Virus record (IMG/VR): IMGVR_UViG_2541047853_000004
DNA: 32,919 nucleotides
From: a virus
Taxonomy: Duplodnaviria; Heunggongvirae; Uroviricota; Caudoviricetes
Reading direction: 5' to 3' (one strand)
The position numbers and the translations under genes are program-made. Positions 2,554 through 30,900 of this stretch are shown piece by piece; the first letter of the stretch is position 1, and the number at the start of each line of letters is the position of its first letter. The notes below the pieces were generated by a model. That model did no database searches. It was given only the letters and a program-made list of their open reading frames with translations, and was not told the DNA's origin.

Positions 2554-3336
2554 TTACAATCCTATTTTAAAATCACATGATAAGCAAATTGATTTAGTTT
2601 TAGATATGACGGCGAGTGTTTTCCCCGGAGTTTGACAATTAGTACAAACATTCCAATTTTTCGGTTTTCCATCAATCTTATATATGTTGGCTAAAATATC
2701 ATCTAAAGGAAAAAATGTTTTCATCATGTCTATAATGCTTGCTGCATAGTTTTTCTTTGCCTCGACTAATTTTTGTTCAGGCATGTTTTTATCATTTATC
2801 AAGCAATGAACCAGGTTATTAAGAGGCTCTTGATATATCTCCTCTCGAAAAATTAGAAATGCACTTAAAAAGTCTTTACGTATTTCTTTATTATTACTTT
2901 TACCTAAGTGAATTACTTTATTTCTTTCTTTGCGCAAAATATCATAAATTTCATTAAAGCGCGGTGAAAGATTTCGCCCACTGATACTTTGTGCTATTCT
3001 ATGTAGCTCGGTTGCGTCTAATGTTGAACATTCGAAAAATGATTTGTTTTTATAGCAGTCTTTTACTTCTTTTAAAAGTAAATAAACACTATGCTCAGCA
3101 ATTATAGACTTTAGATATATTTCAGCAGAATTAAAGAGTATTACTAAGCCAGATTGAAAGAAACTCTCTTTTTCGGATATTAAGCGTTTCAGTCGTTGTT
3201 CTTCTGTTTCAGGTTGAGCTGGGGCTTGCAATAACTCAATGTCAGAATAAAAGTGTAAGTAGAATGTTTTAATGAAAAACTCAAGGTTCCTTTTGGCATA
3301 AAGAAGCATCTCTTCATTGTTAGGAAGGTCTGTCAT
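2554..3336 (-). CDS. hypothetical protein with HEPN-type Rx4H motif (RNKVIH) and C-terminal CxxC-x16-CxxC zinc ribbon
   Basis: 260 aa. Motif ILRKERNKVIHLG is encoded at 2908-2925 (rc AGA AAT AAA GTA ATT CAC). C-terminal CTNC...CLSC. Start ATG directly follows the cI stop (TAAATG on the minus strand) with an AAGGA RBS. Very AT-rich. Confidence 0.5.
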   Translation of the reverse strand: MTDLPNNEEMLLYAKRNLEFFIKTFYLHFYSDIELLQAPAQPETEEQRLKRLISEKESFFQSGLVILFNSAEIYLKSIIAEHSVYLLLKEVKDCYKNKSFFECSTLDATELHRIAQSISGRNLSPRFNEIYDILRKERNKVIHLGKSNNKEIRKDFLSAFLIFREEIYQEPLNNLVHCLINDKNMPEQKLVEAKKNYAASIIDMMKTFFPLDDILANIYKIDGKPKNWNVCTNCQTPGKTLAVISKTKSICLSCDFKIGL

Positions 3337-4293
3337 TTAAATATCCTTATATATACCAAAACATTTTGCTATTACATTAATATCCGCTAATAGACATTCA
3401 AAAGTTGTACTTTCATTAGATACTTTTACTTTTGCAATTGGAATTCTGGTTAGATCTCTAACACTAAATTTTCCTTCGATTTCAACTAACCATTTTCCAT
3501 CGGTTACTTCATCAAATGCTTTGTCTGCAAGATATACATTTCCTTCATCTACTATAGATATGGGGTTTTTCACCTTGCTGGGTAACATGGTTTTATCAAA
3601 AGGGAGATAATTTGTATCAAACAACATACCATTTATAACTTTTTTCCGTGTGATAGCAATAATATCGCTCTTAGCGTCTTCAAAGACGGGACCATTACCG
3701 GTTGTTAGCCACATTAATGAAGCTCCGGTTTCAAGTGCGCACTGGATGATCCAATCAGCTGGAAAGGTATCTCTCATGTAACGATTGGCTAATGTGCTTT
3801 TTGAAACACCAATGTGATCCGCTAGAGCTTGCCTTGTCTTAAATCCATAGGCGATAACTATTCGCTCGATTGCCGCTTTTCCTCCTTGATTAACCTCAAT
3901 GAGGCTCTCGTTCTTTCGGTGAGTATTGTTCTCATTTGGGGATTTTGTGTCTAAAGTGAGAGAATGAATCTCCTTACCATCTTTATGGTGGTTCTGTTCT
4001 GTATTATGTGTGACAGCCTCTACTGTGTTATCGGTACCAAATGCCAACCATTCAACCGACACGCCAGTTTCCATGCTGCAGATTATGACCCAGTCGGCAG
4101 GGAAGGTATCACGAGCATATCTGTTCGCCATTGTGCTTTGGGATATCCCTAAGTGGTTACAGAATGCTTGACGTGAAGTGAAGCCATAAGCTTTCAAAAT
4201 TCGGTCAATGACCTGTTGCCCTCCACGATTCTGCATGATTACAGTTTTCATTGCATCATCAACATGGCGAAATGTGATTTTGTGTGTTGACAT
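3337..4293 (-). CDS. cI: immunity repressor, 186 CI-type, with tandemly duplicated N-terminal HTH domain
   Basis: 318 aa. Two consecutive copies of the phage CI-repressor HTH signature (ILKAYGFTSRQAFCNHLGISQSTMANRYARDTFPADWVIICSMETGVSVEWLAFG and IVIAYGFKTRQALADHIGVSKSTLANRYMRDTFPADWIIQCALETGASLMWLTTG), then a C-terminal domain. Divergent from apl/cox. Confidence 0.8.
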   Translation of the reverse strand: MSTHKITFRHVDDAMKTVIMQNRGGQQVIDRILKAYGFTSRQAFCNHLGISQSTMANRYARDTFPADWVIICSMETGVSVEWLAFGTDNTVEAVTHNTEQNHHKDGKEIHSLTLDTKSPNENNTHRKNESLIEVNQGGKAAIERIVIAYGFKTRQALADHIGVSKSTLANRYMRDTFPADWIIQCALETGASLMWLTTGNGPVFEDAKSDIIAITRKKVINGMLFDTNYLPFDKTMLPSKVKNPISIVDEGNVYLADKAFDEVTDGKWLVEIEGKFSVRDLTRIPIAKVKVSNESTTFECLLADINVIAKCFGIYKDI

Positions 4294-10599: not shown

Positions 10600-11145
10600 A
10601 TGGACGTTATAACTGGAGTTGCAGAGTTTTTTCGAAAAGTACCTGCAGCATTTCTTGTGGCTATTACATGTGTTTTAGGTCTTATACTTTTTCTGCCAGA
10701 CTCTTTGGCAGTAAAAGTGGCTGTTGATGGCTTTCGTAATGAGTATAGGATTTTTATTGGACCTGCATTTTTACTGTCTGTATCTTATTTAGTTGCAAGA
10801 GTCTATCTCTCTTTCTATGACTTACTTGGTGAAAGGCAGGCTAAGAAGGTACGCACTTCCTACCTTGAGAAGCTAACAGCAGAAGAAAAAGGATATTTAA
10901 AGTCTTATATTACCGAAGGTGTTAATTCACTTATGTGTGGGCCTGAGGATGGGGTCATGGGGGGACTTGTGGCTAAGGGGATTACTTATAGAGCCACCAG
11001 TGTTGGGGATATGATCTACGGTTTTGCTTTCAACTTACAGCCATGGGCGCGTGAACATTTAGAGAAAAATAGTCATTTATTAGATGGGGCTATTGGGCGT
11101 GCAATGACTCCAAGAGAAAAATTAAACTTTAGATTGGGACGCTAA
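10600..11145 (+). CDS. AT-rich accessory membrane protein (two predicted N-terminal TM helices), candidate superinfection-exclusion/abortive-infection protein
   Basis: 181 aa with GGAGG RBS. Hydrophobic segments AAFLVAITCVLGLILFLP and IFIGPAFLLSVSYLVARVYL. Visibly lower G+C than flanking genes. Sits between the A/cos region and Q. Confidence 0.5.
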   Translation: MDVITGVAEFFRKVPAAFLVAITCVLGLILFLPDSLAVKVAVDGFRNEYRIFIGPAFLLSVSYLVARVYLSFYDLLGERQAKKVRTSYLEKLTAEEKGYLKSYITEGVNSLMCGPEDGVMGGLVAKGITYRATSVGDMIYGFAFNLQPWAREHLEKNSHLLDGAIGRAMTPREKLNFRLGR

Positions 11146-19107: not shown

Positions 19108-19501
19108 AGCGGTGACTTATGTCCGCAATAACCCGGACAAACTGCATCTGTTTGTAGATAACGGTTCGCTGGTTGCCACGGGGGCCAGCTCCATGTCATG
19201 GGAGTACCGCTATACCCTGAACGTGGTGATAGAGGATTTCAGCGGCGACCAGAATCTGCTGATGGCCCCGGTTTTACTGTGGCTTCGGGATAACCAGCCC
19301 GATGCCATCAATAACCCGGCGTTACGGGAAAAGCTATTCACCTTTGAGGTGGATATTTTGCGCAACGATGTCTGTGATATCAGCCTTAACCTGCAACTGA
19401 CGGAACGTGTGCTGGTCAGTACTGACGGCAGTGTGTCGAGCGTTGAAGCTGTAGCAGAACCCGATGAACCTGAAGAAATGTGGACGGTGAAACGTGGCTG
19501 A
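19070..19501 (+). CDS. R: tail completion protein R
   Basis: GTG start with AGGAG RBS 7 nt upstream; (M)NKPQSLRHALNKAVTYVRNNPDKLHLFVDNGS resembles the P2 gpR N-terminus as recalled. Confidence 0.7.
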   Translation: MNKPQSLRHALNKAVTYVRNNPDKLHLFVDNGSLVATGASSMSWEYRYTLNVVIEDFSGDQNLLMAPVLLWLRDNQPDAINNPALREKLFTFEVDILRNDVCDISLNLQLTERVLVSTDGSVSSVEAVAEPDEPEEMWTVKRG

Positions 19502-19940
19502 ACTGCAGAAGGTGGACGACTGGCTGAGTGCCTTGCTGGCGAATCTGGAACCAGCCACGAGAAGCCGCATGATGCGCCAGCTGGCGCAGGAACTGCGCCG
19601 GACACAGCAGCAGAATATCAGGATGCAGCGCAATCCAGATGGCAGCAGTTATGAACCGCGCAGGGTAACAGCACGCAGCAAAAAAGGCCGCATCAAACGT
19701 CAGATGTTTGCAAAGCTGCACACCACAAAATACCTGAAAACTGCCGCCAGCGCCGACTCTGCCAGCGTACAGTTTGAAGGCAAGGTGCAGCGTATTGCCC
19801 GTGTTCACCATTACGGCCTGCGTGATCGCGTCAGTCGCAAAGGACCGGAGGTCCGTTACGCAGAGCGCCGCCTGCTGGGTGTAAATGATGATGTTGAGGC
19901 AATGACCCGCGACATGATTCTGCAATGGCTGGCGGGGTGA
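19494..19940 (+). CDS. S: tail completion / virion morphogenesis protein S
   Basis: 148-aa ORF at the conserved position; GTG start overlapping the R stop. Confidence 0.7.
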   Translation: MAELQKVDDWLSALLANLEPATRSRMMRQLAQELRRTQQQNIRMQRNPDGSSYEPRRVTARSKKGRIKRQMFAKLHTTKYLKTAASADSASVQFEGKVQRIARVHHYGLRDRVSRKGPEVRYAERRLLGVNDDVEAMTRDMILQWLAG

Positions 19941-19944
19941 TCTT

Positions 19945-19962
19945 TGTATCAGCACTGATACA
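19945..19962. promoter_or_regulatory. TGT-N12-ACA dyad (Ogr-type late promoter element) upstream of V
   Basis: TGTATCAGCACTGATACA, a perfect 18-bp palindrome. Confidence 0.5.
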
Positions 19963-20008
19963 AGTTGCAGCACTGCCGCCTTTCTTCCCCTGATGGCAAC
20001 CTTTCCCT

Positions 20009-20587
20009 ATGAACGCACAATTAACCGAAATCATGCGCCTTATCACCAACCTGATCCGCACTGGGGTAGTCACCGAAGTGGACAGGGAAAACTGGCTTTG
20101 CCGGGTGAAAACGGGCGAGCTTGAAACCAACTGGATCAGCTGGCTGACGCTGCGTGCCGGGAATGCCCGCACATGGTGGCGACCATCGGAAGGTGAGCAG
20201 GTGGTGCTGCTGAGTCTGGGCGGCAATCTGGAAACCGCCTTTGCGTTACCCGCCATCTATTCGAATCAGTTCGCGCCACCGTCGACGTCGGCGGACGCCT
20301 GCGTGACAGAACATCCTGACGGTGGCTGGTTTGAATACGAACCCGCCACCGGACGCTGGTATGTCAGGGGCATCAAATCAATGGTCATTGAGGCCGCTGA
20401 CAACATCACCATGAAAACCAGTGAGTTTGTACTGGAGGCTGACCGCACGCGCATTAACAGCGAAGTGGTGATCAATGGTGGCGTTACCCAGGGCGGCGGA
20501 GCGATGAGTTCTAACGGGATCGTGGTTGATGCGCATCAGCATACTGGCGTCCTGAAAGGCGGCGATACAACCGGAGGCCCGGTATGA
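20009..20587 (+). CDS. V: baseplate spike/assembly protein V
   Basis: 192 aa; RTGVVTEVD...CRVKTGELETNWISWLTLRAGNARTWWRPSEGEQVVLLSLGGNLETAF parallels P2 gpV as recalled. Confidence 0.8.
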   Translation: MNAQLTEIMRLITNLIRTGVVTEVDRENWLCRVKTGELETNWISWLTLRAGNARTWWRPSEGEQVVLLSLGGNLETAFALPAIYSNQFAPPSTSADACVTEHPDGGWFEYEPATGRWYVRGIKSMVIEAADNITMKTSEFVLEADRTRINSEVVINGGVTQGGGAMSSNGIVVDAHQHTGVLKGGDTTGGPV

Positions 20588-20943
20588 CGCTTTATAGCGG
20601 GATGAACAATACCAGCGGCAAAGTCATTACTGATATTGACCATCTGCGCCAGTCGGTGCGGGACATTCTGCTGACGCCGCAGGGTAGCCGCATTGCTCGT
20701 CGTGAATATGGTTCCCTGCTGTCGGCACTGATAGACCAGCCACAAAATCCGGCGTTACGCCTGCAGGTCATGTCGGCAGTGTATGTGGCGCTGAGTCGCT
20801 GGGAGCCACGGCTGACGCTGGATTCTATCACCATCAACAGCAACTTTGACGGTTCTATGGTGGTGGAGCTGACCGGGCGGCGTAATAACGGTGTGCCTGT
20901 TTCCCTTTCCGTATCAACAGGAGCAGAGAATGGCAGTGATTGA
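20584..20943 (+). CDS. W: baseplate wedge protein W
   Basis: 119-aa ORF; start overlaps the V stop. Confidence 0.8.
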   Translation: MTLYSGMNNTSGKVITDIDHLRQSVRDILLTPQGSRIARREYGSLLSALIDQPQNPALRLQVMSAVYVALSRWEPRLTLDSITINSNFDGSMVVELTGRRNNGVPVSLSVSTGAENGSD

Positions 20944-21838
20944 CCTTTCGCAGTTGCCTGCGCCGCAGATTGTGGATGTGCCGGACTTTGAGACGCTGCT
21001 TGCCGAACGCAAGGCAGAATTTGTGGCGCTTCATCCGAAAGATGAGCAGGAAGCAGTGATCCGCACGCTGGAACTGGAATCTGAACCCGTCACCAAATTG
21101 TTGCAGGAGAACGCTTACCGTGAGTTGCTTCTGCGCCAGCGCATTAACGAAGCCGCGCAGGCGGTGATGGTGGCTTACGCGATGGGCGGCGATCTGGACC
21201 AGCTAGCTGCCAACTACAACGTGAAACGCCTGACGGTGACGCCTGCTGATGATGACGCTGTGCCGCCCGTTGCAGCTGTGATGGAAAGCGATGAAGCGTT
21301 ACGCCTGCGTGTGCCTGCGGCTTTTGAAGGGCTTTCGGTTGCGGGGCCAACCGCAGCTTATGAATTTCATGCCCGAAGCGCCGACGGTCGGGTGGCGGAT
21401 GCCAGTGCAACCAGCCCGGCACCTGCAGAGGTGGTGCTGACTGTCCTTAGCCGCGAAGGCGATGGAACTGCAGAAAAAGACCTGCTGGACGTGGTGGAAA
21501 AAGCTCTGAACAGTGAGAACGTTCGCCCGGTGGCTGACCGTCTTACGGTTCGCAGCGCAGAAATCATCCCGTATCGCGTGGAAGCCACCATTTTTCTCTA
21601 TCCGGGACCGGAAGCAGAGCCGGTAATGGCAGCGGCAAAAGCCAGTCTGCAGAAGTACATTGCCAGCCAGACGAGGCTTGGTCGGGATATTCGCCGTAGC
21701 GCCATCTTTGCTGCTCTGCATGTTGAGGGTGTTCAACGTGTGGAACTGGCTTCTCCGCTGGCGGATGTGGTCCTGAACAAAACACAGGCGGCATCATGTA
21801 CGCAGTGGAGCGTAACCAACGGAGGAACGGATGAATAG
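20940..21838 (+). CDS. J: baseplate assembly protein J
   Basis: MAVIDLSQLPAPQIVDVPDFETLLAERKAEF parallels the P2 gpJ N-terminus; ATGA overlap with the W stop. Confidence 0.8.
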
Positions 21839-22436
21839 TCTGCTGCCACTGGGTTCAACTTCACTGGAGCGCCGACTGGCGCAAACCTGTAGCGGGATTT
21901 CTGATTTGCAGGTGCCGCTGCGTGACTTGTGGAATCCGGCTACCTGTCCGGTCAGCTTCCTGCCTTATCTCGCCTGGGCGTTCTCTGTGGATCGCTGGGA
22001 CGAGGGCTGGACAGAAAGCGTCAAACGCCAGGTAGTGAAGGATGCTTTTTATATTCATCAGCATAAAGGAACCACCAGTGCCGTGCGGCGGGTGGTGGAA
22101 CCGTTCGGATTCCTGATCCGCATTATTGAGTGGTGGCAGACCGGAGAAACACCGGGCACGTTTCGCCTGGATATCGGCGTGCAGGACCAGGGCATCACTG
22201 AAGATACCTATCTGGAACTTGAGCGACTGATAAGCGATGCCAAACCATGTAGCCGCCACATGATCGGCATGTCCATCAATCTGCAGACCAGCGGCCCGCA
22301 TTGGGTGGGAGCCGCCAGCTATCTTGGCGAAGAAATCACGATCTATCCGTATATCAACGAAACGATTATTTCCGGTGGCACCGCGCATGAAGGCGGGGCG
22401 GTCCATGTTATTGACACAATGAGAGTGAATCCATGA
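21831..22436 (+). CDS. I: baseplate/tail protein I
   Basis: 201-aa ORF with GGAGG RBS at the conserved position. Confidence 0.8.
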   Translation: MNSLLPLGSTSLERRLAQTCSGISDLQVPLRDLWNPATCPVSFLPYLAWAFSVDRWDEGWTESVKRQVVKDAFYIHQHKGTTSAVRRVVEPFGFLIRIIEWWQTGETPGTFRLDIGVQDQGITEDTYLELERLISDAKPCSRHMIGMSINLQTSGPHWVGAASYLGEEITIYPYINETIISGGTAHEGGAVHVIDTMRVNP

Positions 22437-23776
22437 GCACAAAATTTTATACCCTGCTGACGGATATTGGCGCGGCGAAACTTGCCAGCGCCGCCGCGCT
22501 CGGTGTGCCGCTAAAAATTACCCATATGGCGGTGGGCGATGGCGGTGGAGTATTGCCAACGCCGGACGCAAAGCAGACGGCACTGGTAAATGAGAAACGC
22601 CGGGCTGCGCTGAATATGCTTTATATCGACCCGCAGAACAGCAGCCAGATTATTGCCGAACAGGTGATCCCTGAAAACGAGGGCGGTTGGTGGATACGTG
22701 AAGTGGGCTTGTTTGATGAGTCCGGGGCATTGATTGCCGTGGGCAACTGCCCGGAAAGCTATAAGCCGCAACTGGCTGAAGGTAGCGGGCGCACTCAGAC
22801 CGTGCGCATGGTGCTGATTACCAGCAGCACGGACAATATCACCCTGAAAATCGACCCTGCTGTAGTGCTGGCAACCCGCAAGTATGTGGATGACAAGGCA
22901 CTGGAGCTGAAGGTGTACGCGGATGATCAGATGGCAAAACATCTTGCCGCACCGGACCCGCATTCACAGTACGCGCCAAAAGCCAGCCCGACATTTACCG
23001 GAACCCCCAAAGCGCCAACGCCAGCGGCGGGGAATAATACCACGCAGGTTGCGACCACTGCGTTTGTACAGGCGGCACTGACGGCCCTTATTAATGGTGC
23101 GCCAGCCACGCTGGACACGCTGAAAGAAATAGCCGCAGCCATTAACAATGATCCGAATTTCAGTACCACCATTAACAATGCGCTGGCACTAAAAGCACCG
23201 TTGTCGAGTCCGGCACTCACCGGAACGCCAACAGCCCCCACGGCGGCGCAGTCGGTCAACAATACACAGATTGCCACTACGGCTTTTGTGAAATCGGCGA
23301 TTGCAGGAATGGTGGGTTCTGCACCTGCTGCACTGGATACACTGAACGAACTGGCGGCGGCACTGGGGAATGATCCGAACTTTGCCACGACAATGCTTAA
23401 TGCGCTGGCAGGTAAACAACCGCTGGACAATACGCTTACCAATTTGAGTGGAAAGGATGTAGCTGGTCTTCTCGCATACCTTGGTTTGGGAGGAACGCTA
23501 CAAAGCCTCAACGCCGGGGATTCCGTTATTTATCTGCCAATCGGTGAAAAGACACTGATTATCCAGATCGGTGTAGTCCCGTTTTTTTCTGCTTCAACGT
23601 ACACGAAAACGTTTAATGTTCCGTTTCCTAATGGCCTGCTTTTAGGCCTTGCCTCGTGGGACGCTCAGCCCGGAACGACAGTTAACGTTGGTTCGTACTC
23701 CCCCGAGAGCATGACGCTATTCAAAAGCGGCTCACCCAGTTCAAATGCCTGTCACTGGATAGCAATAGGATTTTAA
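22433..23776 (+). CDS. H: tail fibre protein H, with internal tandem repeat and an exchangeable C-terminus
   Basis: 447 aa; N-terminus MSTKFYTLLTDIGAAKLA. Two tandem copies of a roughly 70-aa fibre repeat (about 22985-23430). The 3' end lies inside the invertible segment. Confidence 0.8.
   Translation: MSTKFYTLLTDIGAAKLASAAALGVPLKITHMAVGDGGGVLPTPDAKQTALVNEKRRAALNMLYIDPQNSSQIIAEQVIPENEGGWWIREVGLFDESGALIAVGNCPESYKPQLAEGSGRTQTVRMVLITSSTDNITLKIDPAVVLATRKYVDDKALELKVYADDQMAKHLAAPDPHSQYAPKASPTFTGTPKAPTPAAGNNTTQVATTAFVQAALTALINGAPATLDTLKEIAAAINNDPNFSTTINNALALKAPLSSPALTGTPTAPTAAQSVNNTQIATTAFVKSAIAGMVGSAPAALDTLNELAAALGNDPNFATTMLNALAGKQPLDNTLTNLSGKDVAGLLAYLGLGGTLQSLNAGDSVIYLPIGEKTLIIQIGVVPFFSASTYTKTFNVPFPNGLLLGLASWDAQPGTTVNVGSYSPESMTLFKSGSPSSNACHWIAIGF
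23481..23492 (+). repeat. left inverted repeat / candidate invertase crossover site inside H
   Basis: TTGGTTTGGGAG at 23481-23492; its exact reverse complement CTCCCAAACCAA is at 24985-24996. Confidence 0.55.
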
Positions 23777-23777
23777 T

Positions 23778-24200
23778 ATGTACAATTACTACGCATTAAA
23801 AAATAAATTCTACCCAACACACCTTCGCGGCGAATACAAAAAAAACGGCATGTGGCCAACAGACTGCATTGATATTGACGACTCTGTATTTACGGAGTTT
23901 ACGGGGGTACCACCAACCAACCAGATGCGTATTCCTGGCGATAATGGGCTGCCAGTTTGGGGAGATATTCCCCAACCAACACATGAGGAACAGACTGAGA
24001 TTGCCGAACAATACCGCCAGCAACGGCTACAGCAGATTGACGAAGTAACCGTCGACTGGCGGGTTGAATTAATGCTCGGCGATATCAGTGATGAAGACAA
24101 AGAGAGGTTGTCTGAGTGGATGGCGTATAAAAAAGCAGTGAAAGCCGTCGACGTATCAACAGCTCCTGATGTTATCTGGCCTACATCGCCGGAGGGGTAG
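23778..24200 (+). CDS. G: tail fibre assembly protein G
   Basis: 140-aa ORF directly after H with a Tfa-like C-terminus (...DVSTAPDVIWPTSPEG). Confidence 0.7.
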   Translation: MYNYYALKNKFYPTHLRGEYKKNGMWPTDCIDIDDSVFTEFTGVPPTNQMRIPGDNGLPVWGDIPQPTHEEQTEIAEQYRQQRLQQIDEVTVDWRVELMLGDISDEDKERLSEWMAYKKAVKAVDVSTAPDVIWPTSPEG

Positions 24201-24615
24201 GCCAGTTGATATCCGGTGCGCTGGATGTGTCTACAGCCTCCAGTGCGCCCAGATAATCCAGCCACAGATTGTATTGCTCCTTCTCCGCTTCTGTCAGACG
24301 TCCCAGCACCGCTTTACCGGGCCATTGCCTGTTATTCATGTAGAGAATGGCCTCATCAATGAGCTGTTGCCGCATATTTTGGGCATTCGATACCATTTGT
24401 TCTGGGGTGGTCGGGGGAATTTCAAGCCAGCATGGCATTCCTGCATCATTTACACCGCGATACTTACCTGCTGGCGGCTCACCAATAAAATCAAGATACA
24501 AACTTTCATCAACTTCCAAGGCATCAGAAGGCCATGAGTCTGCTGCGATGTAGCTTTCTTTAAGCTCTCCGGCATAAAACGCATTTTCAGATGCAGAGAA
24601 ATATTTCATATTCAT
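24181..24615 (-). CDS. alternative tail fibre assembly protein (inverted cassette)
   Basis: 144 aa, paralogous in architecture to G (C-terminus ...DTSSAPDINWPTPPAM) and convergent with it. Confidence 0.7.
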   Translation of the reverse strand: MNMKYFSASENAFYAGELKESYIAADSWPSDALEVDESLYLDFIGEPPAGKYRGVNDAGMPCWLEIPPTTPEQMVSNAQNMRQQLIDEAILYMNNRQWPGKAVLGRLTEAEKEQYNLWLDYLGALEAVDTSSAPDINWPTPPAM

Positions 24616-24616
24616 T

Positions 24617-25036
24617 TCAGTACCCTATTACAAAATATCGGCCGTAACATGCTACCTCGTCACTACTGCGCGTTGCTGCCGCGCCCACTGACTCAGTATT
24701 AAGACAGATTGCTGTAGCAGTGATAGTGGTTCGGCTCGTTGTACTTATTGCATACACCGTCGGGCGGGTGATCTGCGTTGTATTATCATGTGTTGCATAT
24801 GCCTGCATCGCGGCAGTCGGAAAAGCAATCGGCAGATTAATATCCACAGTGCCGCCTGATCTCAGAGGTGTCAGTATTCCCCATTGCATAATAAACGTCT
24901 GGCGGACACCGCTAATTAATATTGGGAATGTGGCGTATCCCGCTGAACCAAGACTACCTGTCGCAACACCTGCGGCACTGATATCTCCCAAACCAACGTT
25001 TAAGAAAATGCAGAGGTAACGGCTAACTGGCATCAT
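24617..25036 (-). CDS. alternative tail-fibre C-terminal segment (silent cassette, joined to H on inversion)
   Basis: 139-aa ORF on the opposite strand whose 5' end carries the same TTGGTTTGGGAG core as the H crossover point. Typical of Gin/Cin/Pin-type fibre switches. Confidence 0.6.
   Translation of the reverse strand: MMPVSRYLCIFLNVGLGDISAAGVATGSLGSAGYATFPILISGVRQTFIMQWGILTPLRSGGTVDINLPIAFPTAAMQAYATHDNTTQITRPTVYAISTTSRTTITATAICLNTESVGAAATRSSDEVACYGRYFVIGY
24985..24996 (-). repeat. right inverted repeat / candidate invertase crossover site
   Basis: CTCCCAAACCAA on the plus strand, reverse complement of 23481-23492; located beside the invertase gene. Confidence 0.55.
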
Positions 25037-25063
25037 CCCCGGTATTTATTCAGGGGATTGATC

Positions 25064-25621
25064 ATGCTTATTGGCTATGTACGCGTGTCAACAAATGACC
25101 AGAACACCGATTTGCAACGTAATGCACTGAACTGCGCGGGATGTGAGCGGATTTTTGAGGATAAAATCAGTGGCACTAAGTCCGACAGACCGGGGCTGAA
25201 AAAACTGCTCAGGACACTATCGGCAGGAGACACGCTGGTCGTCTGGAAGCTGGACAGGTTGGGGCGCAGTATGCGGCATCTTGTTACGCTGATAGAAGAG
25301 TTGCGCCAGCGTGGCGTGAATTTCCGAAGCCTGACTGACAGTATTGATACCAGTACCCCAATGGGCCGTTTCTTTTTTCATGTCATGGGTGCCCTGGCTG
25401 AAATGGAACGCGAACTGATAGTTGAACGCACTATGGCAGGGCTGGCTGCAGCTCGTGCCAAAGGCAGAGTAGGTGGACGCCGTCCTAAGTTGACCACCGA
25501 ACAGTGGGCACAGATTGGACGTTTACTCGAGGCCGGAGAATCAAGACAGCGTATTGCACTGATTTTTGACGTGGGCGTTGCTACCATTTATAGAAAATTT
25601 CCGGCGAATAAGAGCAATTAA
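25064..25621 (+). CDS. serine DNA invertase (Gin/Hin/Cin/Pin family)
   Basis: MLIGYVRVSTNDQNTDLQRNAL catalytic-serine N-terminus, resolvase-like core, C-terminal HTH (GVATIYRKF). Adjacent to the invertible fibre cassette. Confidence 0.85.
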   Translation: MLIGYVRVSTNDQNTDLQRNALNCAGCERIFEDKISGTKSDRPGLKKLLRTLSAGDTLVVWKLDRLGRSMRHLVTLIEELRQRGVNFRSLTDSIDTSTPMGRFFFHVMGALAEMERELIVERTMAGLAAARAKGRVGGRRPKLTTEQWAQIGRLLEAGESRQRIALIFDVGVATIYRKFPANKSN

Positions 25622-25678
25622 TCGCCCTGAATCAGCATTCTTTTGATTTTTCCTGTAAGCGGACAAATACCGTCATTT

Positions 25679-25696
25679 TGTGTGAATAACGGCACA
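25679..25696. promoter_or_regulatory. TGT-N12-ACA dyad (Ogr-type late promoter element) upstream of FI
   Basis: TGTgtgaataacggcACA, 77-94 bp upstream of the FI ATG. Confidence 0.5.
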
Positions 25697-25772
25697 ACTG
25701 CGATTAGCTGTTTGTCAGGCACAATCACTTCAACATAGGGCGAAGCCTAATCCAATCAGGAGGTTTGCCACT

Positions 25773-26945
25773 ATGGCTCAGGATTACCACCACGGGGTGC
25801 GCGTTGTTGAAGTCAACGAAGGCACCCGATCCATTACCACGGTGAGCACCGCCATCGTGGGTATGGTCTGCACGGGCGATGATGCCGATGCAAAAATGTT
25901 CCCTCTTAATAAACCCGTGCTGATCACTGATGTGCTGACTGCCAGCGGTAAAGCGGGTGAGTCCGGTACTCTGGCCCGTTCGCTGGATGCCATCGCTGAC
26001 CAGGCAAAACCCGTGACTGTTGTTGTGCGTGTGCCGCAGGGTGAAACGGAAGACGAAACCACGACCAATATCATCGGCGCAGTGACCGCTGAAGGTAAAA
26101 AAACTGGCATGAAAGCCCTGTTATCTGCCCAGTCACAGCTCGGCGTTAAACCACGCATTCTGGGTGTACCTGGTCACGACACCAAGGCGGTAGCTACTGA
26201 GTTGCTGAGCGTAGCGCAAAGCCTGCGTGGGTTTGCTTACCTGTCAGCGTATGGCTGCAAGACAGTGCAGGAGGCGATCACTTACCGCGAAAACTTCAGC
26301 CAGCGCGAAGGGATGCTGATCTGGCCTGACTTTACTGGCTGGGACACGGTGCTGAATGCCGAAGCAACGGCATATGCCACCGCCCGTGCGCTTGGTCTGC
26401 GCGCCAAAATTGACGAGCAGACCGGATGGCACAAAAGCCTGTCCAACGTGGGCGTGAACGGTGTCACCGGAATTTCTGCAGATGTGTTCTGGGATCTGCA
26501 GGACCCGGCAACCGATGCAGGTCTGCTGAACCAGAACGACGTCACCACGCTTGTGCGTAAAGACGGTTTCCGCTTCTGGGGTTCCCGCTGCCTGAGTGAT
26601 GACCCGCTCTTTGCCTTCGAAAACTACACCCGCACGGCGCAGGTGCTGATGGACACGATGGCAGAAGCACACATGTGGGCGGTGGATAAACCGCTTAACC
26701 CGTCGCTGGCCCGCGACATTATCGAAGGTATCCGCGCCAAAATGCGCAGCCTGGTCAGTCAGGGCTATCTCATTGGTGGTGATTGCTGGCTGGATGAGTC
26801 GGTGAACGACAAAGACACGCTGAAAGCCGGAAAACTCACCATCGACTACGACTACACGCCAGTGCCGCCACTTGAAAACCTGATGCTGCGTCAGCGCATC
26901 ACCGATCAGTACCTGGTGAATTTCGCCAGCCAGGTCAGCGCGTAA
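25773..26945 (+). CDS. FI: tail sheath protein FI
   Basis: 390 aa with CAGGAGG RBS; N-terminus [19 protein letters not shown] as in P2-family sheath proteins. Confidence 0.85.
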
Positions 26946-26954
26946 GGGGACAAC

Positions 26955-27470
26955 ATGGCTTTACCACGCAAATTAAAACACATGAACCTGTTTAACGACG
27001 GGAACAACTGGCAGGGGATCGTTGAGTCGCTGACGCTGCCGAAATTTACCCGCAAATATGAGAAGTATCGCGGCGGCGGAATGCCGGGTGCGGTGGATGT
27101 GGATCTGGGGCTTGATGACAGTGCGCTGGACACAGAATTTTCCATTGGTGGTACTGAATTGCTGCTGTTTAAACAGATGGGTAAAGCCACGGTGGATGGC
27201 ATCCAGCTGCGCTTTACCGGCTCTATTCAGCGTGACGATACCGGGGAAGTGCAGGCCGTGGAGCTTGTCGTGCGTGGACGTCACAAAGAAGTGGATTCCG
27301 GCGAGTGGAAGACGGGCGAAAGCAACACCACCAAAGTGACCAGTACCAACAGCTACGCGAAGCTGACCATCAATGGTGAGGTGCTCTATGAAGTGGACCT
27401 TATCAACATGGTGGAAATTGTGGACGGTGTGGACCTGATGGAAGCGCACCGCAACGCCCTCGGCCTCTGA
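26955..27470 (+). CDS. FII: tail tube protein FII
   Basis: 171 aa following the sheath gene; MALPRKLKHMNLFNDGNNWQG. Confidence 0.85.
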   Translation: MALPRKLKHMNLFNDGNNWQGIVESLTLPKFTRKYEKYRGGGMPGAVDVDLGLDDSALDTEFSIGGTELLLFKQMGKATVDGIQLRFTGSIQRDDTGEVQAVELVVRGRHKEVDSGEWKTGESNTTKVTSTNSYAKLTINGEVLYEVDLINMVEIVDGVDLMEAHRNALGL

Positions 27471-27524
27471 TATATCTGAACGGCGCGGGATACCGCGCCA
27501 GAACCCAATTGACAGGACAGCAAA

Positions 27525-27827
27525 ATGAGCGATAAGCAGACTGAAAAGACCATTCAACTGGATACCCCTATCAAGCGCGGTAAAACAGAAATCACCGAAA
27601 TTGTGCTGCGTAAACCGCAGTCCGGTGCGCTGCGCGGTACACGCCTGCAGGCCATTATGGATATGGATGTAAACGCGATGATGACCGTGATCCCCCGCAT
27701 CTCCAGTCCGGCACTGACTGCACAGGAAATTGCAGAGATGGACCCGGCAGATCTCACTGCCATGTCGGTTGAGGTTGTCACTTTTTTGTTGAAGAAGTCG
27801 GTGCTTGCCGGTTTACCGACAGCCTGA
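27525..27827 (+). CDS. E: tail assembly chaperone E
   Basis: 100-aa ORF preceding the tape-measure gene; contains the T7G slippery site near its 3' end. Confidence 0.8.
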   Translation: MSDKQTEKTIQLDTPIKRGKTEITEIVLRKPQSGALRGTRLQAIMDMDVNAMMTVIPRISSPALTAQEIAEMDPADLTAMSVEVVTFLLKKSVLAGLPTA

Positions 27828-27961
27828 CGGTTGACGATCTGGTGGCAGATATCGCCACCATTTTTCACTGGCCGCCATCCGTTACTGACGTTATGCCGCT
27901 GACCGAAGTGCTGGAATGGCGGTATAAAGCGATTCAGAGAAGCGGGGCCAACGATGAGTGA
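27525..27961 (+). CDS. E': E+E' fusion chaperone made by programmed -1 frameshift
   Basis: Slippery heptamer T TTT TTG at 27782-27788. The -1 frame then reads ...LTVDDLVADIATIFHWPPSVTDVMPLTEVLEWRYKAIQRSGANDE to a TGA at 27959-27961, resembling the P2 E' C-terminus as recalled. Confidence 0.7.
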
Positions 27962-30900
27962 TAACAACCTGCGTCTGCAGGTCATTCTTAATGCGGTTGA
28001 CAAGCTCACCCGCCCATTTCGATCTGCGCAGGCCAGTTCAAGAGAACTGGCTGCTGCTGTCAAAAAATCCCGCGATGCAATAAAGCAGCTTGATCAGGCC
28101 GGGAGCAGTCTGGACAGCTTCCGAAAGCTGCAGGCAGAAAATCAGAAATTAGGCGACAGGCTGAACTATGCCCGCCAGCGTGCAAATTTGCTCAGTCAGG
28201 AACTGGGAGCGATGGGGCCGCCTTCGCAACGTCAGGTTGTTGCTCTGGGCCGTCAACGGCTGGCTGTTCAGCGCCTGGAAGAACGCCAGAAAAAGCTGCA
28301 GCAGCAGACGGCGCTTGTGCGTGCTGAACTGTACCGGGCGGGAATTTCTGCGAAAGACGATGCGGGAGCAACTGCCCGTTTAGCCCGTGAAACATCACGT
28401 TATAACCAGGAACTTTCGAAACAGGAGGCGCGGCTGAAGCGACTGGGGGAAGCTCAGCGCAGGATGAATGCAGCGCGTGCCAGTTATGCCCGTTCGCTGG
28501 AGGTGCGTGATCGTATTGCAGGTGCCGGAGCCACCACCACGGCTGCAGGGCTGGCAATGGGTGCGCCAGTGATGGCGGCAGTAAAAAGCTATACCAGCAT
28601 GGAAGATGCCATGAAAGGTGTGGCAAAGCAGGTCAATGGTCTGCGTGACGATAATGGCAACCGCACTGCACGTTTTTATGAAATGCAGGATGCCATCAAG
28701 GCTGCCAGCGAACAGTTGCCGATGGAAAACGGTGCGGTGGACTTCGCTGCACTGGTTGAAGGTGGTGCGCGCATGAACGTCGCAAACCCTGACGACAGCT
28801 GGGAAGATCAGAAACGTGACCTGCTGGCCTTCGCCAGTACGGCAGCAAAGGCGGCAACAGCCTTTGAGCTGCCAGCGGATGAACTGTCAGAAAGTCTGGG
28901 GAAAATCGCCCAGCTCTACAAAATCCCCACCCGCAATATTGAACAGCTCGGTGATGCGCTGAACTATCTGGATGATAACGCCATGTCGAAAGGGGCAGAC
29001 ATCATTGATGTGATGCAACGTCTGGGCGGTGTGGCTGACCGTCTGGATTATCGTAAAGCGGCGGCGCTGGGTTCCACCTTCCTGACACTGGGCGCTGCGC
29101 CAGAGGTTGCAGCCAGTGCAGCAAACGCGATGGTGCGTGAATTGTCCATTGCCACCATGCAAAGCAAGAGTTTCTTTGAAGGGATGAATCTGCTGAAACT
29201 CAATCCTGAAGTGATTGAAAAGCAGATGACGAAGGATGCGATGGGAACCATCCAGCGCGTGCTGGAGAAGGTAAACGCGCTGCCGCAGGACAAGCGCCTG
29301 TCTGCCATGACTATGTTGTTTGGTAAAGAGTTTGGCGATGACGCGGCGAAACTGGCAAACAACCTGCCGGAACTGCAGCGTCAGTTAAAACTGACAGCGG
29401 GCAATGATGCGCTTGGCTCCATGCAGAAAGAATCCGACATTAACAAGGATTCACTTTCTGCGCAGTGGTTGCTGGTCAAAACCGGAGCGCAGAACACCTT
29501 CAGCAGCCTGGGCGAAACGCTGCGCCAGCCGCTGATGGATATTCTGTACACGGTGAAAAGCGTCACGGGGGCGTTGCGTCGCTGGGTGGAAGCTAACCCG
29601 GAACTGACAGGCACACTGATGAAAGCATCGGCTGTTGTGGCTGCGGTTACCGTCGGCCTCGGCACCTTAGCGGTGGCGCTAGCTGCAGTGCTGGGGCCGC
29701 TGGCAGTGATCCGTCTGGGATTCTCTGTGTTGGGTATCAAAACGTTATCTTCCGTTACGGCAGCAGTAACTCGAACCAGCAGCGCGTTGTCCTGGCTGGC
29801 TGGCGCACCACTGGCACTGCTGCGACGCGGGCTTGCTTCATCGGGCAACGCCGCAGGTTTACTTACTGCGCCGTTGTCGTCTTTGCGCCGCACGGCATCA
29901 CTGACGGGAAATGTCCTGAAAACTGTAGCAGGTGCGCCGGTTGCACTTTTGCGGTCTGGATTATCCGGTTTACGTGCTGTTGCTGTGATGTTTATGAATC
30001 CTCTGGCGGTACTGCGCGGTGGACTGGCCGCCGCAGGCACGGTGCTGCGAGTACTGGCATCTGGTCCACTGGCGATGCTGCGCGTTGCCCTGTATGCCAT
30101 ATCTGGTCTGTTAGGTGCTCTGCTCAGTCCGATAGGTCTTGTGGTTACTGCACTGGCGGGCGTGGCGCTGGTTGTCTGGAAATACTGGCAACCCATCACC
30201 GCATTTCTCGGTGGCGTGGTGGAAGGATTCAAAGCGGCGGCAGGTCCCATCAGTGCAGCGTTCGAACAGCTTAAGCCCGTGTTCCAGTGGATTGGCGACA
30301 AAGTGCAGGCGCTGTGGGGCTGGTTTACTGATCTGCTGACGCCCGTTAAGTCGACCTCTGCCGAACTGCAGAGCGCAGCGGCAATGGGGCGGCGATTCGG
30401 GGAGGCACTGGCGGAAGGGCTGAATATGGTCATGCATCCGCTGGACTCCCTGAAATCCGGAGTTTCCTGGTTGCTGGAGAAGCTCGGCATTGTCAGTAAA
30501 GAGGCCGCAAAGGCAAAACTGCCGGAAATCGTGACGCGTCAGCAACCTGCGACGGTGAATGCAGACGGTAAAGTGATGATGCCATCGGGTGGTTTTCCAT
30601 CATGGGGATATGGCTTTGCGGGGATGTATGACAGCGGCGGGTATATCCCGCGCGGGCAGTTTGGCATCGTCGGTGAAAACGGGCCGGAAATTGTTAACGG
30701 CCCGGCAAATGTGACCAGCCGGAGAAATACAGCTGCACTGGCTGCCGTTGTTGCCGGAATGATGGGCGTTGCTGCCGCGCCAGCAGAGCTTCCACCGTTG
30801 CACCCCTTGGCACTTCCCGCGAAAGGAGGAGAAGCAATTGTGAGTCGCGCAGCCACTGTGCCGCTCGTTCAACGGATTGAGGCACCGACGCAGATCATCA

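Follow-up and report, generated by a model that had tools for sequence, protein, structure and literature searches.

Does the tail fibre locus of this prophage encode one fibre or two? The fibre gene, H, is followed on the same strand by a gene for a fibre assembly chaperone (tfa), and these two genes face a second chaperone gene (tfa') and a fragment of a fibre gene on the opposite strand, beyond which lies the gene of a DNA invertase. A first-pass annotation of this DNA had proposed that the whole arrangement is an invertible cassette for switching the host range, and the open reading frames of H, tfa, tfa', the silent fibre cassette and the invertase all lie where it had placed them. We conclude, with a probability of roughly 93%, that a two-state, site-specific inversion switch of the Gin/Cin/Pin type governs which tail fibre this complete P2/186-like prophage makes. 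In kind, it is an ordinary switch of the Mu/P1/e14 type with a Pin/Gin-family invertase, and as such is already known. The "window" hereafter denotes the entire stretch of DNA that was analysed (32,919 nucleotides).

Results

The prophage backbone

A complete P2/186-like prophage of E. coli makes up the window. In NZ_AP022120, which has an identical locus, the RefSeq annotation of the element, which lies between rcdA and ybjL, begins with an integrase and ends with an ogr/Delta-like protein. The gene set and its order are of the P2 type (int, CI/CII, A, portal/terminase/scaffold/capsid, lysis, V-W-J-I-H-G, FI-FII-E-T-U-D and ogr), and the Pfam matches in the prophage include Tail_P2_I and sheath domains. 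The flanks of the switch share 96-97% DNA identity with Escherichia phage Cartapus (Peduoviridae, Elveevirus).

Two convergent fibre-chaperone modules

The features of the locus are listed in Table 1. The invertible segment contains two modules, Hv plus tfa and H'v plus tfa', that face each other, with the 3' ends of tfa and tfa' overlapping by 20 bp. Whichever way the segment lies, the baseplate-proximal part of the fibre comes from the constant part of the gene (Hc), which remains outside the segment and also contributes promoter and start codon; fused to Hv, Hc yields a fibre of 447 aa. The alternative cassette, H'v, has no start of its own within the segment and comes into frame with Hc once the segment is inverted. 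The first-pass annotation was right to call the minus-strand reading frame at 24617-25036 a fibre C-terminal cassette, but its outer boundary has to be moved: the first 13 codons (24997-25036) lie beyond the segment and are non-fibre sequence, and the real cassette is 24617-24994.

Table 1. Features of the fibre switch, with positions numbered along the window
Feature	Position	Strand	Evidence or remark
H, complete fibre gene	22433-23776	+	Pfam Phage_tail_fib and Gp53-like_C
Hc, constant part of H (codons 1-350), outside the segment	22433-23482	+	Pfam Phage_tail_fib, residues 1-150
Left 26-bp site	23469-23494	+	TTCTCGCATACC TT GGTTTGGGAGGA; central TT at 23481-23482
Invertible segment, 1512 bp between central dinucleotides	23483-24994		Inverted in EC0880B, flanks collinear
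Hv, variable C-terminal tip, expressed orientation	23483-23776	+	Pfam Gp53-like_C, residues 375-446
tfa, assembly chaperone of Hv, expressed orientation	23778-24200	+	Pfam Caudo_TAP, E = 2.6e-32
tfa', assembly chaperone of H'v, silent orientation	24181-24615	-	Pfam Caudo_TAP, E = 7.7e-31
H'v, silent alternative fibre C-terminal cassette	24617-24994	-	Pfam Gp53-like_C, E = 3.8e-12
Right 26-bp site	24983-25008	-	TTTTCTTAAACG TT GGTTTGGGAGAT (minus-strand reading); central TT at 24995-24996
Serine DNA invertase, Pin/Cin/Gin group, 185 aa, outside the segment	25064-25621	+	Pfam Resolvase and HTH_7
Putative Fis enhancer homologue (invertase nt 19-90)	25082-25153	+	Homology to the enhancer annotated in P1

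The two tips have little in common, with only 22 of 121 positions identical between Hv and H'v (18%), and the two chaperones share 52 of 147 residues (35%). Identities as low as these are consistent with differing receptor or host specificities of the two modules. A promoter scan found no sigma-70-like promoter for either the silent cassette or the invertase gene, and a terminator scan of the locus returned terminator-like matches that were unconvincing. NCBIfam had no specific model for the fibre, the chaperone or the invertase group, all matches falling below the cut-offs.

Two recombination sites of the pix type

The 12-bp core TTGGTTTGGGAG is found at 23481-23492 on the plus strand and, as had been claimed, its exact reverse complement at 24985-24996; these are the sole matches in the whole window, even when one mismatch is allowed. 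The inverted repeat is longer than the core, extending over 24 nt with 79% complementarity (I1; 23469-23492 / 24985-25008). We do not regard the 12-bp repeat alone as significant evidence, as by our own arithmetic a stretch of 3.3 kb should contain about 0.3 perfect inverted repeats of this length, and another perfect one does occur (I5; 23069/24847). Its significance derives from a match to known recombination sites, from a reading frame shared by the two cassettes, and from the existence of a natural inverted allele.

Alignment of the cores with gix- and cix-type sites, a check that the first-pass annotation had suggested, revealed recognisable 26-bp sites that are nearly identical to the pix sites of e14. 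The left site, located within H and encoding the residues ..LLAYLGLG.., aligns with e14 pixL (CTCTCGAAAACC TT GGTTTGGGAGAA), P1 cixL and Mu gix, while the right site differs from e14 pixR (TTTTCATAAACG TT GGTTTGGGAGAA) at 2 of 26 positions. The two sites are in inverted relative orientation, and in each a TT core, identical between them, separates two imperfect half-sites of 12 bp. A site matrix derived solely from known pix, cix and gix sites was run over the 32.9-kb window, with shuffles for comparison. The right site obtained the top score in the window (26.9) and the left site scored 24.2; with the next real match at 13.3 and the best shuffle at 16.1, these two sites alone stood above background. 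A third site, as would be found in a shufflon-like system of multiple inversions, was sought in the window with the same matrix and none was found.

Both cassettes are read across the core as xTT GGT TTG GGA. When inversion was simulated, an in-frame open reading frame of 475 aa resulted, with tfa' directly behind it. Thus, the 447-aa and 475-aa fusions each lie directly upstream of a Caudo_TAP gene, an arrangement typical of invertible fibre switches of the Mu G, P1 C, e14 P and p15B Min type.

A natural inverted allele

E. coli EC0880B carries the same prophage with positions 23483-24994 inverted; both flanks are collinear and the segment is otherwise unchanged, so that the roughly 1.5-kb invertible segment predicted earlier corresponds to the 1512 bp inverted in this strain. 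When strands were exchanged in silico at the central TT, the product matched the EC0880B locus along 9519 bp except for an unrelated SNP at 19720; a conservative exchange at the sites is thus borne out by natural alleles. The fibre coding sequence of EC0880B, translated from the locus, is identical to the simulated 475-aa fusion (annotated as WP_047658919.1), and tfa' follows directly downstream. The claim that inversion exchanges both the C-terminus of H and its cognate chaperone therefore holds in the simulation as well as in EC0880B. The four assemblies of EC0880B represent one strain in one orientation and hence one inversion event, not four. The EC0880B paper (PMC10569738) mentions neither the prophage nor the inversion.

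The alternative orientation, which the first-pass annotation had expected to exist, is also common in public assemblies. Contigs with the exact 447-aa form numbered 299 and those with the exact 475-aa form 228, counts that may take in prophages sharing one cassette and differing in the other; the exact invertase was found on 586 contigs. Among complete genomes, orientation A (that of the window) was represented by six and orientation B by four, plus one 90% relative. Of 5426 complete E. coli genomes searched, about 1290 (~24%) share Hc, with homology stopping at 23493-23509, and the homology to Cartapus ends precisely at 23492. In the phages collection, no record had both cassettes, and the best matches covered 47% of the query (flanks only).

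The invertase and its putative enhancer

The invertase was assigned to the Gin/Cin/Pin group, as had been proposed, by its identity to Pin (86%), Cin (78%) and Gin (76%). Its Resolvase domain was matched with E = 8.9e-53, and 139 of 184 residues are identical in an alignment with Gin chains of known structure (PDB 3uj3/4m6f; E = 3.6e-93). The catalytic residues R7, S9, D64 and R65 are all conserved in the alignment, and R68 of the DRLGR motif is present by reading of the translation. In Hin, Q151, R154 and L155, together with basic residues at 47, 48 and 51, have been reported to be specific to invertases that depend on Fis and an enhancer (PMC3798978). Residues of this type are present here as Q150, R153, L154, K46, K47 and R50. 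Positions 106 and 114 are tied to Fis-independent mutants, and the residues found there, H106 and M114, are the wild-type, non-hyperactive ones; the solved Gin chains have V at 114.

The first-pass annotation had suggested looking for a Fis-dependent enhancer early in the invertase gene, and a homologue of a known one was found there. The P1 record annotates an "enhancer of Cin-mediated C-segment inversion" at nt 19-90 of cin, and the corresponding region of the present gene matches pin at 63 of 72 positions, P1 at 56 (78%) and gin at 52. About 90 bp separate its start from the nearest site, which is comparable to the distance of roughly 100 bp reported between enhancer and site in hin. A second line of evidence, conservation at synonymous sites, proved suggestive: 5 of 19 fully conserved synonymous codons in the region as against 9 of 92 (p = 0.06). 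At least one other 72-nt stretch of the invertase gene is better conserved, and we did not accept synonymous-site conservation as independent proof of the enhancer.

Comparison with known inversion systems

The closest relative is the P-segment/Pin system of e14 in E. coli K-12 (stfP-tfaP / tfaE-stfE / pinE). Besides the likeness of invertase, sites and enhancer region given above, both systems keep a constant fibre part outside the segment, two convergent modules of tip and tfa inside it, and the invertase gene beside the right site. However, e14 is a defective lambdoid remnant in which stfE is annotated as a pseudogene, whereas here the switch belongs to a P2/186-like prophage that is complete and keeps its tail operon intact. 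The variable cassettes are also unlike, and a short stretch of tfa alone is about 75% similar in DNA.

The G segment of Mu (Gin; S-U / U'-S') has Sc outside, Sv plus U and S'v plus U' inside, and an adjacent invertase, and the C segment of P1 (Cin), likewise with an adjacent invertase, follows the same mechanism and gene logic. These systems share with ours 26-bp sites with a 2-bp core, and the enhancer that the P1 record annotates near the start of its invertase gene has a homologue here. They differ in segment length, which is 1.5 kb here as compared with ~3 kb in Mu G and over 4 kb in P1 (boundaries as annotated in the records), and in backbone, which is that of the Peduoviridae here and not of Mu or P1. 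The core is TT here, as in cix and pix, whereas gix has TC.

Within the Peduoviridae, invertible P2-like loci occur at the same I-H/FI position, for example in Escherichia phage Cartapus, phage 500465-1, Klebsiella phage KP12 and the prophages of EPEC E2348/69. They have the same Hc region and left site and an invertase that is 98.9% identical, but their variable cassettes are unlike ours, with homology breaking exactly at the two sites. In the P2-like prophages of EPEC E2348/69, inversion was shown by sequencing and PCR (PMC4272514). One EPEC locus has three repeats and four variants, whereas two sites only are present here. Phage P2 itself has the same order of tail genes (V-W-J-I-H-G ... 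FI-FII-E-T-U-D) without an invertase or a second cassette; in their place, between G and FI and on the opposite strand, is fun(Z), as the first-pass annotation had correctly stated.

Discussion

The two-state switch proposed here has its basis in the anatomy of the locus, the homology of its sites, the conservation of the reading frame and the clean natural inversion alleles, all of them observed at the locus. One of two fibre tips would be made at a time, each with its matching chaperone. By analogy with its family, the 185-aa invertase is presumably the catalyst of the inversion. It would bind both 26-bp sites, cut at the central TT and exchange the strands, presumably in a Fis-dependent manner, with assistance from a Fis-bound enhancer in the 5' coding region of its own gene. 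In the orientation seen in the window, the products would be the 447-aa fibre and Tfa; in the inverted orientation, they would be the 475-aa fibre, with its unrelated tip, and Tfa'. The exchange of tips presumably alters the receptor, and with it the host range, as a form of bet-hedging.

Among other explanations, the one that survives best, although we consider it decidedly improbable, is that the locus descends from an invertible segment but has ceased to invert, for example because the invertase is unexpressed, so that the orientations in the databases are old, vertically inherited alleles. A promoter-like site was indeed lacking upstream of the invertase gene, yet its reading frame is intact with both catalytic and regulatory residues, and both sites are intact as well. 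The four EC0880B isolates do share one orientation and the three pig isolates the other; nonetheless, the two alleles differ solely by the inversion across 9.5 kb, which argues for a very recent event over long separate descent. Moreover, both exact fusion proteins are abundant, and related P2-like prophages switch in culture (PMC4272514).

Much less credible still is an origin of the inversion alleles from RecA-type homologous recombination at the short repeats, or from assembly error, rather than from the invertase. Invertible regions can assemble ambiguously, but four independent, closed assemblies of EC0880B agree, and the same junction recurs on hundreds of independent contigs. The repeats, although inverted and identical over 12 bp, are too short for RecA-type exchange, since RecA-dependent exchange needs far more than twelve identical bases. 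The breakpoints fall, furthermore, within sites resembling pix, cix and gix beside a Pin-like invertase. Finally, that the 12-bp repeat arose by chance, and that recombination between phages left behind a second fibre gene and a second chaperone gene, we reject as next to impossible despite the frequency with which such repeats are expected and the presence of I5, because the repeat is read in the same frame by each cassette (as the simulation confirmed), extends into 26-bp sites that score as known recombination sites, and coincides with the breakpoints of the natural inversion.

Inversion in P2-like prophages of E. coli is already published, and the two-state switch at this locus raises no new biological question. 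The main value of the finding lies in annotation. What RefSeq presents as a stub, a "gp53-like domain-containing protein", next to a second "tail fiber assembly protein" is the silent half of a host-range switch, and a single gene in its two states accounts for both WP_021548676 (447 aa) and WP_047658919 (475 aa). For comparative genomics, this means that the orientation of the segment should not be scored as a difference between strains. For phage engineering, the 26-bp boundaries are natural exchange points for tips together with their chaperones, in the approximately 1290 complete E. coli genomes noted above.

A further prospect, which we put forward as unlikely, is that the Pin-like invertase acts in trans on other, near-identical pix-type sites of the chromosome, such as those in the fibre genes of e14-like or further P2-like prophages, or that the orientation of the segment gives the lysogen a phenotype of its own. 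Cross-reaction is plausible, given how closely both sites resemble e14 pix. A phenotype of this sort, for example a changed susceptibility to other phages, has lately been claimed in the case of PinQ and PinR of cryptic prophages. If action in trans or a phenotype of the lysogen were true, the host, and not the phage alone, would benefit from the switch.

Anatomy of the locus

The reading frames of the tail-fibre region lie where the first-pass annotation had placed them, and their domains agree with the roles assigned. The silent cassette was correctly taken for a fibre tip, but the first 13 codons of its reading frame fall outside the invertible segment and are not fibre sequence. In RefSeq, this cassette is annotated on its own as a 90-aa 'gp53-like domain-containing protein' (window 24617-24889, -; L002 4618-4890), and many 'gp53-like' fragments of 93-122 aa in public databases fall into clusters with the full fibre. 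Rather than real genes, the 90-aa and 93-122-aa entries most likely represent annotation artefacts that stem from the silent half of the switch. The convergent tfa and tfa' overlap at their 3' ends by 20 bp (24181-24200), where a conserved C-terminal ..WPT(S/P)P.. motif is encoded on both strands. The chaperone 3' ends also overlap in e14 and Cartapus (29 bp), whereas U and U' of Mu are separated.

A prophage identical to the window is carried by E. coli WP5-W18-ESBL-11 and five more complete genomes. As annotated in RefSeq, the WP5-W18-ESBL-11 locus lies between rcdA and ybjL, with a phage integrase at one end and an ogr/Delta-like gene at the other. It contains the whole P2/186 gene set, with CI, CII, replication endonuclease, portal, terminase, scaffold, capsid and lysis genes, and the tail genes in the order V-W-J-I-H-G, then FI-FII-E-T-U-D. 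Escherichia phage Cartapus (Peduoviridae, Elveevirus) is 96-97% identical to the flanks of the switch. In P2, the G-FI interval is occupied by fun(Z) on the opposite strand, in agreement with the first-pass annotation.

Features of the prophage and known recombination sites (site sequences written outside half first)
Feature	Position	Strand	Domain or sequence
Three cargo genes between integrase (1-1053, -) and CI repressor (3337-4236, -)	1132-2551; third gene, 2554-3336	-	
SieB-family superinfection-exclusion gene, adjoining portal gene	10600-11145	+	Pfam SieB, E = 4.5e-25
H, tail fibre	22433-23776	+	Phage_tail_fib at N-terminus, Gp53-like_C as tip
Left site	23469-23494	+	TTCTCGCATACC TT GGTTTGGGAGGA
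tfa	23778-24200	+	Caudo_TAP
tfa'	24181-24615	-	Caudo_TAP
Second fibre tip ORF	24617-25036	-	Gp53-like_C
Right site	25008-24983	-	TTTTCTTAAACG TT GGTTTGGGAGAT
Invertase ORF	25064-25621	+	Resolvase + HTH_7
Candidate enhancer	25082-25153		
Dyad, probable activator site	25679-25696	+	TGT-N12-ACA (TTGTG..CACAA)
e14 pixL (public record)			CTCTCGAAAACC TT GGTTTGGGAGAA
e14 pixR (public record)			TTTTCATAAACG TT GGTTTGGGAGAA
P1 cixL (public record)			CAATCCTAAACC TT GGTTTAAGAGAA
Mu gix (public record)			TTATCCAAAACC TC GGTTTACAGGAA

Recombination sites

The 12-mer TTGGTTTGGGAG and its exact inverted copy, reported in the first-pass annotation, were both located (23481-23492, +, and 24985-24996), and it occurs just these two times in the 32.9-kb window, even at one mismatch. 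The inverted repeat, I1 in our list for the region, reaches 24 nt at 79% complementarity (23469-23492/24985-25008). By arithmetic, about 0.3 perfect 12-bp inverted repeats are expected by chance in 3.3 kb, and a second one, I5, is present; thus the 12-bp repeat alone is unremarkable, and the case rests on other evidence.

The left and right sites are mutually inverted, with identical, non-palindromic TT cores. A position weight matrix was built from four known sites only (pixL, pixR, cixL and gix). Over the two strands of the window, it gave its highest scores to the right site (26.9) and then the left (24.2), the next unrelated match reaching 13.3 and the best of 30 shuffles 16.1. These scores, together with the alignment to pix, cix and gix, place the repeat cores inside recognisable recombination sites. 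The scan recognised no third site on either strand of the window, and the locus is therefore a simple two-state switch.

Invertase and candidate enhancer

Assignment of the 185-aa invertase to the Gin/Hin family was borne out: it matches solved Gin structures (E = 3.6e-93, 139/184 identical residues), and an ungapped comparison over 180 residues gives identities of 86% with e14 Pin, 78% with Cin and 76% with Gin. The catalytic positions R7, S9, D64 and R65 are intact, as is R68 of the DRLGR motif, read from the translation. H106 and M114 are those of wild-type Gin; in the Gin chains that were crystallised, position 114 is V. Hin residues Q151/R154/L155 and basic 47/48/51 are reported to be conserved only in Fis/enhancer-dependent invertases (McLean et al., PMC3798978); their counterparts here are Q150/R153/L154 and K46/K47/R50. 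A promoter scan found no promoter-like site for the invertase.

The P1 record annotates an 'enhancer of Cin-mediated C-segment inversion' at cin nt 19-90. Its counterpart in the window is identical at 56/72 positions to P1, 63/72 to pin and 52/72 to gin, that is 78%, 88% and 72%, as against 67%, 75% and 66% over the rest of the gene. Synonymous sites showed an excess of conservation that is only suggestive (p = 0.06), and the 15-bp Fis cores lack a confident placement; the candidate enhancer is thus supported by homology.

Products and occurrence of inversion

Both cassettes share one reading frame across the core, xTT GGT TTG GGA. An in silico exchange at the central dinucleotides converted the 447-aa H (..LLAYLGLG-GTLQSL..) into an in-frame 475-aa H' (..LLAYLGLG-DISAAG..), with the tfa' start a few bases past the H' stop codon, so that, as proposed, inversion would swap both the H C-terminus and its cognate chaperone. 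The two tips share 22/121 residues and the two chaperones 52/147.

The alternative orientation of the proposed 1.5-kb segment exists in nature. The same prophage is present in four closed E. coli EC0880B assemblies, with window 23478-24996 on the opposite strand and collinear flanks (19481-23492 and 24985-28999). The simulated product equals this locus across 9519 bases but for a single SNP at 19720, well away from the segment, and the predicted 475-aa fibre equals the CDS translated from it (annotated WP_047658919.1). Since the prophages differ solely by a clean, conservative inversion, a recent site-specific event is indicated. Both orientations are abundant: in a 15-billion-protein collection, the exact 447-aa form is found on 299 contigs, the exact 475-aa form on 228 and the exact invertase on 586. 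The junction of the constant part of H (Hc) with the expressed tip (Hv) occurs in six complete E. coli genomes, and that with the silent tip (H'v) in four and one 90%-identical relative.

That the switch is nonetheless a frozen relic appears improbable, as its parts are intact and inversion is the sole difference between the alleles. It is very unlikely that the alleles arose from RecA-mediated exchange or assembly error, as identity spans only 12 bp, the breakpoints fall within canonical sites and independent contigs number in the hundreds. A chance 12-bp repeat is refuted by the EC0880B breakpoints, the matrix scan and the in-frame simulated product matching EC0880B.

Other features of the prophage

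Two of the cargo proteins match a candidate anti-phage system, PDC-M11, in PADLOC: one of 356 aa component A (E = 2.4e-130) and one of 123 aa with an ASCH domain component B (E = 4.5e-48). The third, of 260 aa, has only a weak DUF3644 match. P2-like phages have a known defence-cargo hotspot at this int-proximal position. The SieB-family gene is further cargo of the lysogenic-conversion type. The CI repressor (299 aa) has two matched Phage_CI_repr helix-turn-helix stretches and Phage_CI_C; it is longer than expected for a 186-type CI, and either duplication of the N-terminal domain or a start codon called too far upstream could account for this.

Discussion

The first-pass observation and its interpretation were both correct, and this type of switch is already known. 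The Mu G segment and P1 C segment are systems of the same kind, the e14 P segment is the closest known counterpart, and the P2-like phages Cartapus ('Mu phage Gin invertase homolog'), 500465-1 and KP12 are annotated with the identical arrangement and other cassettes. In P2-like prophages of EPEC E2348/69, sequencing and PCR showed phase variation by inversion (Goldberg et al. 2014, PMC4272514), and systematic inversion surveys recognise tail-fibre genes as a class (PMC9881135). The only new point is this cassette pair, discussed in no paper that we found; the EC0880B paper (PMC10569738) does not mention the inversion.

By analogy with Gin, Hin, Cin and Pin, invertase dimers at both sites would form a synapse on a Fis-bound enhancer and, after cleavage at the central TT, rotate and religate the ends. 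Segment orientation would then set fibre and chaperone expression, since a promoter and start codon are available only to the module that is joined to Hc, and the two tips may recognise different receptors. The constant part of H is common to about 1290 genomes, with similarity ending at 23493-23509, and similarity to Cartapus ends at 23492 and restarts at 24984; thus the sites are also boundaries for fibre-module exchange between phages.

Downstream of the invertase, the dyad begins 94 bp before the start codon of FI (sheath), at 25773, and in P2 the annotated activator-binding site of the late promoter pF begins 97 bp before FI. The dyad probably represents the Ogr-type activator site for the F operon, in which case the late promoter would be intact and the invertase gene would have been inserted upstream of it.
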